NCBI GenBank assembly: GCA_951406725.2
Contig: OX597838.1
Location: 14,384,001 to 14,448,000, forward strand
Length of the DNA stretch: 64,000 bases
From: Octopus vulgaris
Lineage: Eukaryota
Direction of reading: 5' to 3'
The position numbers and the translations under genes are program-made. The notes beneath the pieces are model-generated. The model worked only from the letters and a program-made list of their open reading frames with translations. It searched no databases and was not told the origin of the DNA. Below, in pieces: positions 9,946 to 59,530 of the stretch (its first letter is position 1; each line of letters opens with the position of its first letter).

Positions 9946-10057
9946 TTGGTGTAATTGATAATTATTTCTTCAAATTTACGGGAAACAAAAGACGAAGACA
10001 GGGGAAGGAACAACAAGCAGATGTATTAGATTAACGCTTGGGAAGAATGGGAAAGTG

Positions 10058-10091
10058 TCTGACGTTTCGAGCCTACGCTCTTCACCAGAAA
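10058..10091 (-). ncRNA. Minimal variant type I hammerhead-like motif
   Basis: Minus strand: ttt-CTGGTGA-A-GAGC(gtag)GCTC-GAAAC-GTC-aga; A6 is replaced by G. Confidence 0.45.
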
Positions 10092-10308
10092 GGATTGAGA
10101 ACTAAGAAAACGGAGAGGGAACGAAAAGAAAGAAAAAAAAACGGCGAGAAATAGGTGTTGGGATTAACGGTTGAAGATGATGAAATCGTCGGAAGAAAGC
10201 GGCTGAGTTAAAAGGAGGTAATAACGGTGACGTGATGTGTGTGTGTGTGTGCTTATATATATATTTATATATATATAAAATCAAAATAAGCAACAGGATA
10301 TCCAGAGG

Positions 10309-10584: not shown

Positions 10585-10935
10585 AATAACAATTTAATAA
10601 ATAACACATATGCATACATACATATATGTACATACCTACATCTATATGTATATATACATGCATATATGGGTACAGGACACCACAAATAAACGTAGAACAC
10701 AACGAGAAACGAAAACATAAAAACAAAACAAGGAAACGGACTCTTTTTAACAACGAAAAAAACAGAGTACAAGACAAACAACACAAAGAACATTCCCCTT
10801 CTTTAGCTGCCCCTGTTTCGACTCATTGCGTGTTTGGAAGGTAAGGGCAGAACACAACTACGTTGAAACAGTCCTTCCCGCAAAGCGAATTAAATAAAAA
10901 AAATTTGCGGGGGGGGGATTTTTGGCGGTGGCGGG
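10585..10935 (-). mobile_element. Non-coding repeat carrying a jumbled-HHR motif, copy Z
   Basis: Homologous to 12960-13600 and 15262-15800; ends in (TA)n. Confidence 0.8.
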
Positions 10936-12661: not shown

Positions 12662-12891
12662 TTTCCCTTTTACTTGTTTCAGTCATGTGACTGTGGCCAT
12701 GTGACTGTGGCCATGCTGGAGCACCACCTTTAGTCGAGCAAATCGACCCCAGGACTTATTCTCTGTAAGCCCAGTACTTATTCTATCGGTCTCTTTTACC
12801 AAACCGCTAAGTTACGGGGACGTAAACACACCAGCATCGGTTGTCAAGAGATGTTGAGGGAACAAATACAGATACACAAACATATGCAGAC

Positions 12892-12900
<9 letters not shown>
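12662..12900 (-). mobile_element. SINE family B, 3' half
   Basis: Reverse complement of the family B tail and body; the middle part of the same family is at 13612-13675. Confidence 0.85.
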
Positions 12901-12959
<59 letters not shown>

Positions 12960-12962
<3 letters not shown>

Positions 12963-13600
12963 GAATTAATAAATAAAACATATGCATATATACATACATA
13001 TATGTACGTACCTACCTCTACATGTATATATACATGCATATATGAGTACAGGACACCAAAAAACGTCGAAACACAATGAGAAACGAAAACATAGAACACA
13101 AGACCAAGGAACTGGACATTTTTCTTAAACAACGAAAAAATAGAGTACAAGACAAATAACAAAAGGAAAATTCCCCTTCTTCAGTCGCCATGGTTTCATC
13201 TACTCTGCTTTTCGAAGGTGAAGGCGATACGCATCTTCGATTGAAACTTTCCTTCCCGCGAAAAGCAAATTAAATAAAATTTGAGATCTTTTTGCGGAGG
13301 GGTAAAAATGGTAACAAAAACAGGACAGTAACGACAGTACAAAATATAAACAGTAAAAGACAGGACAAGGAGAATAACAAGACAAGAAGGGCTGTTAAAC
13401 CGAACGAGATAAAGTGTTACGAACGCTATTTTTGAGAACGGCGAAGGAGCAACAGAAAATGCCCTTTTACACTTCAAGGAAGCCGGGTCAGAAAGACAGT
13501 AGCAGAGCTCTCGTCGCGGGTCAACGACGGGAGGGAGGAGGAGGAGCAAGAGAAAGGGAGAGAAAAAAAGGGAATGGTTGTGAGGAAACCAGAAAGAATA
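12960..13600 (-). mobile_element. Non-coding repeat carrying a jumbled-HHR motif, copy Y (longest)
   Basis: Aligns over ~500 bp with 15262-15800 in inverted orientation; sits in the (TA)n internal microsatellite of a SINE B. Confidence 0.85.
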
Positions 13601-14168
13601 TATATATACATATATACGACGGGTTTCTTTCAGTTTCCGTCTACCAAATCCTATCACAAGGCTTTGATCGGCCCGTCATGTTTAAAAAACAAAATAGAAA
13701 ATACATGAATATACACCAAAGGAATATGTCTCTATTCTACACGCATATTTTACTGCCACAATCTACAGGAAGAATGAAATTACAATAACAAATAAACCCT
13801 AATCGATGAGAGAGATCGATAGAATGAGTACAGGCATTTAAAAAAAGTACAGGAGTAAATTCATTCGACTAAAACATTTGTCGAGGTGTGCCCCAGCATG
13901 GCCGCAGTCTAATGACCGAGACAAGTAAAAGATAAAAGATAAATAATATAAAGCAAGCATAAAGTATAACGGCGAGACACACTGCGCATATATTAGATAG
14001 AGGGCTCTGAATACATGAGAAAGTACGAAACTCAAATCAGACACTACATATACAGGAGGCACGCTGAAATGAGACAGCTGAACAACCATCAACATCGTCA
14101 TCATCATCATCGTCGTCGTCGTCAACAACAACAACAGCCCTAATAATGATAATGATGATAATTATGGT

Positions 14169-15261: not shown

Positions 15262-15800
15262 AGGCCTCCTTCAAGTAGAGACGGTAATATCTATTGCTCT
15301 CTGCCGTTCTCAAACAATAGCGTTCGTAAAATTTTTTTTATCTCGTTTGGCTTAACAGCCCTTCTTGTTTGTGTCACTGTTATTCTCCGTGTCCTGTCTT
15401 TTACTGTTTATATTTTGTACTGTCGTTACTGTCCTGTTTTTGTTAACATTTTTACCCCTCCGCAAAAAAATCTCAAATTTTATATATAATTTGATTTTCG
15501 CGGGAAGGAAACTTTCATTGAAGTCATGTATCGCCTTGACCTTCGAACGTGGAGTAGATGAAATTAAGGCGACTGAAGAAGGGGGATTTTCCTTGTTTTG
15601 TATGTCCTGTACACTATTTTTTCGTTGTTTAAAAAAAAATGTCCATTTCCTTGGTTTTGTGTTTATGTTTTCGTTTCTCATTGTGTTCGACGTTTTTTTG
15701 GTGTCCTGTACCCATATATGCATGTATATATACATGTAGAGGTAGGTACGTACATATATGTATGTATATATGCATATGTTTAATTCATTTATTAATTTAT
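15262..15800 (+). mobile_element. Non-coding repeat carrying a jumbled-HHR motif, copy X
   Basis: Homologous to copies Y and Z; TA-flanked on both ends. Confidence 0.85.
15525..15585 (+). ncRNA. Putative non-circularly permuted hammerhead ribozyme
   Basis: CATGT-A-TCGCCTTGA-CCTTC-GA(A)ACGTG-linker-TTAAGGCGA-CTGAAGA-AGGGGG; covariation with copies Y and Z. Confidence 0.55.
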
Positions 15801-33094: not shown

Positions 33095-33167
33095 GTTGTT
33101 TGAGCTCAGTCGGTAGAGCATCAAACTTTTAATCTGAGGGTCGCGGGTTCGAGTCCCTCTGAGGGCG
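33095..33167 (+). pseudogene. tRNA-Lys(UUU) pseudogene
   Basis: D arm GCTC-AGTCGGTA-GAGC, anticodon loop CTTTTAA (TTT at 33128-33130), T loop TTCGAGT, 3' acceptor TGAGGGC-G; 5' acceptor GTTGTTT pairs poorly and there is one mismatch each in the anticodon and T stems. Confidence 0.8.
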
Positions 33168-37309: not shown

Positions 37310-37490
37310 AGTTAATCCAAACTAGAAAACACAGAAAAAAACATAGCAACGCGAGGACGTGGAACAATTAAAGTATTATTTGACGCTCAGGAAAGAAGGG
37401 AAGGAGGGTTTAACGTTTCGAGCGGAGCTCTTCGTCGGAAACAAAGGAGAAGGAAAGATCCCGAGGAGGGAAGACAGAGGAAAAAATTTT
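37310..37490 (-). mobile_element. (TA)n-flanked PLE-type short repeat with a minimal HHR-like motif at 37408-37442
   Basis: Inverted homolog of 56715-56897; GTTT-CCGACGA-A-GAGC(tcc)GCTC-GAAAC-GTT-AAAC. Confidence 0.7.
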
Positions 37491-42820: not shown

Positions 42821-42849
<29 letters not shown>

Positions 42850-42859
<10 letters not shown>

Positions 42860-43033
42860 CAAATGAAATAAAATGAAAAACAGGACACAAAGGATGTCGC
42901 TGTACACATGTTTCGAGCTTTATAAAACAACTTATTCTTACGTAAGAATAAGTTGTTTTATAAAGCTCGAAACATGTGTACCGCGACTTCCTTTGTGTCC
43001 TGTTTTTCATTTTATTTCATTTGATACATATAT
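42850..43033. repeat. 184-bp spacerless palindrome (92-bp arms, 2 mismatches)
   Basis: Centre ttac|gtaa at 42941/42942. Confidence 0.95.
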
Positions 43034-43087
43034 CCTCTCACCTCTGCTACTAGCTGGCATATACAGGTGCTTACATTTTATTGTACC

Positions 43088-56668: not shown

Positions 56669-56762
56669 TATATACACACACATACATATATATGTGACCG
56701 CGTGTGTACCGTTGGCGATTTTTTCCTCCGTCTTCCCTTCTCTGGATCTTTCCTTCTCCTAT

Positions 56763-56797
56763 GTTTCCGACGAAGAGCTCCGCTCGAAACGTTAAAC
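56763..56797 (+). ncRNA. Minimal variant type I hammerhead-like motif
   Basis: GTTT-CCGACGA-A-GAGC(tcc)GCTC-GAAAC-GTT-AAAC; U4 is replaced by C. Confidence 0.5.
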
Positions 56798-56956
56798 CCT
56801 CCTTCTTTCCTTCTTTCCTGAGCGTCCAATAACACTATATTTGTTCCACGTCCTCGCGTTGTTGTGTTTTTTTGTGCGTTCATGTTTGGATTAACTATAT
56901 ATATATATATACTCATACACATACACACACATATATAGATAGACAGACAGACAGAC

Positions 56957-59335: not shown

Positions 59336-59530
59336 TCACAACCAATCCGTCTTTAACAATACCACCGATAATCCATAGACACGCGCATATTTACGCATAT
59401 GCTGATAGGCAAAAATCCCACCACGCACACAACGCAACCATATACATTCCTAACATTATGGAGGGTCAAATTTGGAAACAAAAACAGGACAGTAGCGACA
59501 TACAAGGAAACCGAACATACATACATACCA

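Follow-up and report, generated by a model that had tools for sequence, protein, structure and literature searches.

The stretch of the Octopus vulgaris genome analysed here (the window; 64,000 nucleotides (nt), assembly GCA_951406725.2, contig OX597838.1, positions 14,384,001 to 14,448,000) contains, on its minus strand, a copy of a non-coding retroelement, copy Y, that carries the letters of a hammerhead ribozyme core in an unusual order. An earlier, sequence-only reading had described this core as a 'jumbled' hammerhead. The locus raises the question of whether these letters form a ribozyme, how its core is wired and what it does for the element. The answer that we favour, and consider probable, is that copy Y is a mutated copy of a conserved hammerhead fold with a non-circular block order and a predicted split core, located in a ∼0.8-kb non-coding retroelement. 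The RNA of this family likely cuts itself and is likely recopied into (TA)n by an enzyme of the Naiad type, a group of Penelope-like elements, partly from a circle.

All the letters of the hammerhead core are present in copy Y (C3 U4 G5 A6 N7 G8 A9, G12 A13 A14 A15.1 and U16.1 H17). Read directly, the CUGAAGA and GAAA motifs and the G-U-A triplet (13230-13228) are intact where the sequence-only reading had located them (Table 1), and its stem I, UCGCC with GGCGA, and predicted scissile bond are retained here. On the minus strand the blocks run GUA, UCGCC, UUCA, CCUUC, GAAA, AGCA, a linker, GGCGA, CUGAAGA and AGGGG; the order cut site, GAAA, CUGANGA is the reverse of the cyclic order displayed by hammerhead types I-III. 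The proposed core in non-circular order, with stems I and III, is thus supported. Stems I and III are 98.9% paired, with double-sided changes, in an alignment of 35 distinct rows drawn from three subfamilies, and a fourth helix, P4, forms between an upstream GUUUC and GAAAC in the linker. At its gathering threshold Rfam returned no hammerhead from the whole window, the only match being one transfer RNA (tRNA). These comparative data lead us to assign the motif, with high confidence, to a hammerhead-type fold. The closest published parallel is the type-SGC hammerhead (HRIMA-1; Eckert et al. 2023, PMC10085705), which, as described in the main text of that paper, shares the order cut site, GAAA, CUGANGA, all of the core letters, stems I and III, a short linker between stems I and II and a pseudoknotted core.

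Stem II departs from this parallel. The sequence-only reading paired CCUUC with AGGGG directly after A9, a helix that is 77.7% paired and G-U-rich in the 35-row alignment. The supplement of PMC8557442 gives the 3′ ends of Naiad_Ovul and Naiad_Obim, in which the strand preceding GAAA has its perfect partner upstream of the cut, not after CUGAUGA. Mapped onto the main octopus family, this wiring pairs CCUUC with GAAGG. The P6 hairpin lies directly 5′ of GAAGG, and CCCCU, the predicted P5 partner of AGGGG, lies directly 5′ of P6; the core, P5, P6 and stem II would therefore meet without a spare base, in a predicted four-way junction at A9/G10.1. Compensatory changes are seen across the six helices: in 46 distinct copies 94.1% of the cells are paired and 12 pairs are changed on both sides, compared with 38-51% pairing in slid controls, although such cells count copies rather than events. 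Within this set stem I is 95.6% paired with four of its five pairs changed on both sides, and one P6 pair is C-G in 31 copies and U-A in 12.

An older subfamily, recovered by pattern search (81 matches vs 0 for the control; 65-76% identity in the best alignments), provides the contrast for stem II, as it carries GAGCA upstream and UGCUC before GAAA. Across 14 main-family and 12 older rows the upstream stem II is 96.9% paired with three of five pairs changed on both sides, while both-sided changes affect all four pairs of P6 and two of the six of P5. The downstream helix of the sequence-only reading reaches only 78.5%, with one of five pairs changed on both sides and its outermost pair formed in 0/26 rows. 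An alignment-free test of the junction (stem II, P6 and P5, at least 12 of 13 pairs; copies without the cut-site block were dropped beforehand) was passed by 83/97 main-family copies vs 5/485 shuffles and, in the Naiad-type family, by 8/12 copies vs 6/60 shuffles. An upstream stem II that closes on a four-way junction is thus, on comparative grounds, very likely. The main text of PMC10085705 takes CUGAnGA to continue directly into stem II, and has a single helix connecting the far sides of stems I and II. By contrast, in the predicted octopus fold the 5′ strand of stem II is upstream, the break between A9 and 10.1 is closed by P5 and P6, and P4 ties an upstream strand to the linker. So folded, the motif retains the S, G, C block order of that type, while its block C is not intact and no helix directly joins the far sides of stems I and II. 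Two alternative pairings for the 3′ flank were dropped, as several subfamilies change this flank without compensation: CUGAAG followed by a local hairpin, and downstream UCCUU paired with upstream AAGGA.

Between stem III and P4 is an internal loop with GA in a kink-turn-like place. It is irregular in the main family (GUAGA in 79/118 copies); the kink-turn-like GA occurs in 15/16 and 16/19 copies of the other two families. The geometry may be that of a kink-turn. The third repeat family (loci L133 and L263-L282; 2,891 first-look candidates) displays the same wiring in different letters, with a regular kink-turn-like loop, and a further family (L292-L296) places GAAA before CUGAUGA with its own stems I and III. 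Scanning the window and the initial 102 loci with a descriptor yielded no further family, the other families having come from pattern searches.

The genome was searched by pattern (2.8 Gb, 227 contigs). The pattern CCTTCGAAA-N20-32-CTGAAGA gave 3,765 matches, compared with 11 when the pattern was reversed as a control, and is thus no product of chance. A motif located ∼125 nt downstream of the ribozyme gave 6,016 vs 0, indicating about 6,000 copies. The downstream motif does not select for any position near the ribozyme, and was used to choose the first 100 copies on one contig (C1), in order, for an analysis of 5′ ends. In this sample 32 copies start between −1 and +22 relative to the predicted cut (a first pass gave 33), 14 of them at −1 to +8, while 2 begin at −25 to −2, none at −50 to −26 and 6 at +23 to +46 (two-sided binomial, −1 to +22 against the neighbouring windows, 7e-8 and 2e-5). 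Breakpoints upstream of about −75 were left out, as two passes disagree in diverged subfamilies. The flanks at copy starts are microsatellite, SINE (short interspersed nuclear element), unrelated sequence or an inverted arm, showing that the starts are real junctions. The sharp edge of the 5′ ends at the predicted bond is consistent with a reverse transcriptase that runs off the end of a cleaved RNA, and it is on this pile-up that we consider self-cleavage of the family RNA in vivo to be likely.

The anatomy of the family is that of a circularly arranged unit, as some copies extend beyond their 3′ end into sequence that forms the start of others. The 3′ end is common to the copies and passes into (TA)n, and their 5′ ends are ragged; 81 of the 100 sampled copies reach the AT-rich 3′ end, 19 carry the short-tail start and 10 are preceded, within 1 kb, by an inverted piece of the family. 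Partial head-to-tail tandems with periods of 788-823 nt occur at five loci, and copies of 1.0-1.2 laps begin at many different points. ATG frames in one natural tandem reach at most 104 amino acids, and no frame of at least 170 amino acids in 262 loci was tied to the element (judged by eye from the first 50 residues, without a family scan).

Two known systems resemble this anatomy. Metazoan non-LTR (long terminal repeat) retrozymes (PMC7761336; bioRxiv 10.64898/2026.07.22.740005) are, in the available text of these reports, likewise non-coding, hammerhead-bearing and arranged in head-to-tail units, features that the octopus element displays. Retrozymes, however, carry canonical type I hammerheads in units of ∼150-300 nt, whereas the octopus unit is ∼800 nt with a different wiring and without a type I hammerhead, and its copies are mostly dispersed, 5′-truncated and, in the loci seen, at most ∼1.2 laps long. 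The available text of Craig et al. 2021 (PMC8557442) describes for Naiad the 5′ truncation, partial tandems, inverted 5′ pieces, 30-40 nt tail and (TA)n target that the octopus copies also show, and the octopus Naiad 3′ ends in its supplement have the same ribozyme wiring; the Naiad-type loci match, compared by eye, the 3′ ends of Naiad_Ovul and Naiad_Obim listed there. Unlike Naiad, the element has no long reading frame and no GIY-YIG endonuclease plus reverse transcriptase frame, and no sequence link to the Naiad frame was found. Compared by eye, its 3′ end and that of an autonomous Naiad have the ribozyme wiring and a short word near the tail in common. This word, CATCC followed by A/T-rich letters and ending TTGA before the TA run, is in the tails of elements L002, L021 and L316 and in the Naiad 3′ ends L093 and L151; it may be a recognition signal or chance. 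Just past the 3′ (TA)n of L021 an open frame resembles, by eye, a Penelope-like GIY-YIG endonuclease, probably a nested insertion at the shared TA target.

These features suggest a cycle in which we infer the cutting, the joining and the mobiliser. A transcript through a partial tandem would be cut at two ribozymes, releasing unit-length RNA whose ends, held by about 20 base pairs in P5, II, P4 and III, would then be religated. The (TA)n target would be nicked by a Naiad-type enzyme, with priming in the UA-rich region that lies 260-300 nt 3′ of the cut and synthesis in the direction of the cut. If the RNA is linear and cut, reverse transcription would run off near the cut, whereas on circles or uncut tandems it would go on for up to a lap or more. 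Naiad as the mobiliser, proposed from the anatomy, is moderately likely. Re-ligation to a circle is only slightly favoured; the idea derives from the clamping of the ends after cutting and from the several copies that run for more than one lap, together with the retrozyme model in the available text of PMC7761336 and the link between retrozymes and Penelope-like elements in that of bioRxiv 10.64898/2026.07.22.740005; retrozymes are proposed to be mobilised by Penelope-like elements via RNA circles. Weighing against this proposal, no copy was linked to a reverse-transcriptase frame among the loci scanned, and the mobiliser comes from anatomy.

The most durable alternative is that the ribozyme cuts but no circle forms, the long copies deriving from uncut tandem or read-through transcripts or from template jumps, with a mobiliser that may be another element, such as a HERO-type LINE (long interspersed nuclear element). 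The failure to find a coding partner in the loci scanned favours it, as does the description in PMC8557442 of partial tandems as common in Penelope-like elements and able to self-perpetuate; moreover, no circular junction came to light in RNA, and such a junction would be indistinguishable from that of a tandem. It accounts less well for the many different starting points of the 1.0-1.2-lap copies and for the tail, inversions and (TA)n target, which fit Naiad, and other animals' non-LTR retrozymes accumulate as circles (PMC7761336, available text). We regard this alternative as unlikely, though it is the one to be taken most seriously.

The split core itself must be weighed against a plain type-SGC hammerhead, in which CCUUC pairs with GGGG after CUGAAGA with one extra A and the upstream helices are an off-state or accessory. 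Several data temper the four-way junction. Stem II is invariant inside the main family (46 copies), and its three compensatory pairs separate two groups and may represent one evolutionary step. The downstream AGGGG-CCUUC pairing can still form four of five pairs, with G-U, in the main and older subfamilies, one of them changed on both sides, making a second conformer possible. The P4 (70.8%) and stem III (82.1%) columns of alignment A3 are partly out of register, and the junction is poorly supported in the third family (4/16 copies vs 5/80 shuffles), whose copies are decayed. Nested folding, which cannot show stems I and II and served only for P5, P6 and the rival helix considered below, gives neither version of stem II, these pseudoknots being outside its reach. 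A plain type-SGC core would also accord with the short stem I-II linker, which resembles that of HRIMA-1, with the one- or two-base insertions after A9 that are allowed by the main text of PMC10085705, and with the extra base that canonical minimal hammerheads elsewhere in the window have at this position (by eye). Set against these points, the upstream partner forms 4.74 of five Watson-Crick pairs and the downstream partner 1.95 in the main family (97 copies), with values of 4.17 and 1.17 in the Naiad-type and 3.31 and 1.44 in the third family; the stem II of the sequence-only reading thus also fails in two other families with the same wiring. In addition, the outermost downstream pair never forms, and AGGGG has its own conserved partner in P5. 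By this comparison A9 is not continuous with stem II, even allowing for one or two inserted bases, although a weak G-U-rich continuous pairing may form in the main family, and the plain type-SGC core is improbable. We retain the split core.

Cleavage is subject to similar scrutiny. The pile-up of 5′ ends peaks at +6/+7 rather than 0; 18 of the 32 ends lie at +9 to +22, over strands of stems II and III at which enzyme stalling could also leave ends; some of the 100 copies are not independent of each other (arms of a single insertion, a duplicated pair); and each end is placed to within a few bases. The family is covered by contigs of runs presumed to be RNA, with a dip at the cut, but two large runs that are probably DNA show an equal dip, and the run contigs are thus no evidence on expression or cleavage. 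Although the peak position, the ends on the stem II/III strands, the extension of about half of the sampled copies past the site and a core break of a kind described in no hammerhead that we found would suit a hammerhead-derived structural signal (for instance for reverse transcriptase) that no longer cuts, the 5′ ends then marking enzyme stalling on uncut RNA, we give this explanation little credence, as all catalytic letters and the N-U-H triplet (GUA, GUC or GUU) are kept across subfamilies, stalling predicts no sharp edge at the cut, and ends do not pile up at the 3′ edge of the fold (3 ends, +49 to +57) or at the P6 hairpin (2 ends, −60 to −26).

Copy Y is a damaged member of this probably self-cutting family. 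It was said to be the longest of the family copies in the window, which holds for the three found there, each from its own subfamily; it is nevertheless a 5′-truncated piece without about a fifth of the unit, extending from 372 nt before the predicted cut to a 3′ end that runs into (TA)n. It is 92.7-96.2% identical to 14 long sisters (>500 nt compared) and, as reported, is the sole copy in the window with all core letters kept, the other two being damaged. Also confirmed is that A15.2, opposite G16.2 (13230), is the only private change inside the ribozyme relative to sister copies. Among 118 distinct copies this base is C in 106, T in 8, A in 3 (copy Y included) and G in 1. Thus, three helices with covariation surround the core at the family level, while the 15.2-16.2 pair is broken in copy Y. 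The change reduces the predicted stability of the stem III duplex from −5.8 kcal/mol with C to −3.1, while a rival helix, formed by the GAAA strand with the P6 arm, becomes more stable (−13.7 vs −9.5 with C); this helix is present in the minimum-energy nested fold of copy Y. The rival-helix argument is weak, as a similar misfold that sequesters GAAA is also predicted for one copy with C15.2 (0.94 in L127, compared with 0.98 in copy Y and 0.28 in L004). Copy Y is quite probably slow or dead, a judgement in which the effect of the mismatch on the rate is taken from duplex energies. With a single ribozyme it could not, by itself, release unit-length RNA. It is a natural stem III mutant and adds little beyond that.

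The proposal that copy Y is the copy to assay is consequently not sustained, particularly as 122 genomic copies carry the intact 35-nt version exactly. The construct suggested for this purpose, 13150-13300, drops two bases of the outer helix P5, and its failure to cleave would not refute the ribozyme. In contrast, the dating of the insertion is upheld. Copy Y splits the TA-rich linker of a SINE, and the two SINE halves adjoin elsewhere (57 match pairs among 330 sampled loci, some loci counted twice), indicating that copy Y is younger than this SINE copy. We take the host to be a common octopus SINE. A target-site duplication is not distinguishable inside the TA run.

As regards novelty, no description of the split wiring was found in the literature searched, which included few subscription papers and PMC10085705 without its supplements. 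The main text of that paper presents six hammerhead permutations in print that assume CUGAnGA and stem II to be inseparable, and SGC examples that derive from metatranscriptomes and metagenomes, none from the genome of a known organism. Those ribozymes were shown to cleave, whereas the octopus motif, found in an animal retroelement, is predicted to do so from its sequence. In the available text of PMC8557442 no canonical hammerhead is reported for Naiads, only 'core' and 'half core' matches, and Naiad_Ovul is flagged 'HHR_half_core' with a (TA)n preference. The comparative data and the indirect in vivo support thus point to a real hammerhead variant that is new at the family level. If this is correct, a natural, high-copy break between CUGAnGA and stem II widens the rules of the fold, places a non-circularly permuted ribozyme in an animal genome and explains why descriptor searches missed the ribozyme in Naiads (PMC8557442, available text). 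The genomic 5′ ends also make the role of hammerheads in Penelope-like elements testable with a 140-nt transcript. A broader proposal, which is tentative and falls somewhat short of an even chance, is that the split-core hammerhead with a perfect four-way junction is the missing ribozyme of Naiads and their non-coding passengers, and that it cuts, clamps and rejoins the ends, making an RNA circle the template for reverse transcription. Clamped-end RNA circles would then explain the head-to-tail pseudo-LTRs of Penelope-like elements.

Table 1. Features of copy Y, its insertion site and the other family copies in the window (positions are those of the window; helices are predicted).
Feature	Positions	Strand	Remark
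Third family copy, other subfamily	10594-10905	-	G5 and G12 changed (read at 10760-10900)
Host SINE, left part	12671-12897	+	Right part resumes at ∼13601-13690
(TA)n run at 3′ end of copy Y	12896-12959	.	
Copy Y, non-coding retroelement	12960-13599	-	∼640 nt of the ∼0.8-kb unit, 5′-truncated
P5 3′ strand AGGGG	13173-13177	-	Stem II partner in the sequence-only reading
Core C3-U4-G5-A6-A7-G8-A9 (CUGAAGA)	13178-13184	-	
Stem I second strand GGCGA	13185-13189	-	
P4 3′ strand GAAACC	13192-13197	-	
Internal loop, stem III to P4	13198-13205	-	GA in kink-turn-like place; irregular in main family
Stem III 3′ strand	13206-13209	-	A at 15.2 (13209) in copy Y, family base C
Core G12-A13-A14-A15.1 (GAAA)	13210-13213	-	
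Stem II 3′ strand CCUUC	13214-13218	-	C11.1 at 13214
Stem I strand after cut, UCGCC	13223-13227	-	
Stem III 5′ strand and cut triplet, UGC-GUA	13228-13233	-	Predicted cut 13228/13227
P4 5′ strand AAGUUUC	13243-13249	-	Pairs with linker before stem I; covaries across subfamilies
Stem II 5′ strand GAAGG	13251-13255	-	G10.1 at 13255; upstream of cut, not after A9
P6 hairpin	13256-13297	-	Closed by a CCGC...GCGG stem, AU-rich above it; lies between P5 and stem II
P5 5′ strand CCCCU	13298-13302	-	Predicted partner: strand right after A9; 93.5% paired, 46 copies
Second family copy, other subfamily	15263-15797	+	One A of GAAA missing (read at 15480-15620)

The repeat search of the window was dominated by microsatellites. 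Elsewhere in the window, a short fragment at 59455-59510 (minus strand) resembles the older subfamily (P5 strand and upstream flank) and ends before the ribozyme core. Three motifs, at ∼56760-56800 (plus), 37400-37445 (minus) and 10050-10095 (minus), resemble the canonical minimal type I hammerheads that Penelope-like elements carry: stem II is a short hairpin, stem III is tiny, the core has variant letters and A9 is followed by an additional base. They were picked by eye, and the strict descriptor did not list them. A tRNA-like match with a TTT anticodon (33103-33159, plus; 38.4 bits) is without an acceptor stem, and a near-perfect palindrome of ∼200 nt occupies ∼42840-43040, its centre near 42941.
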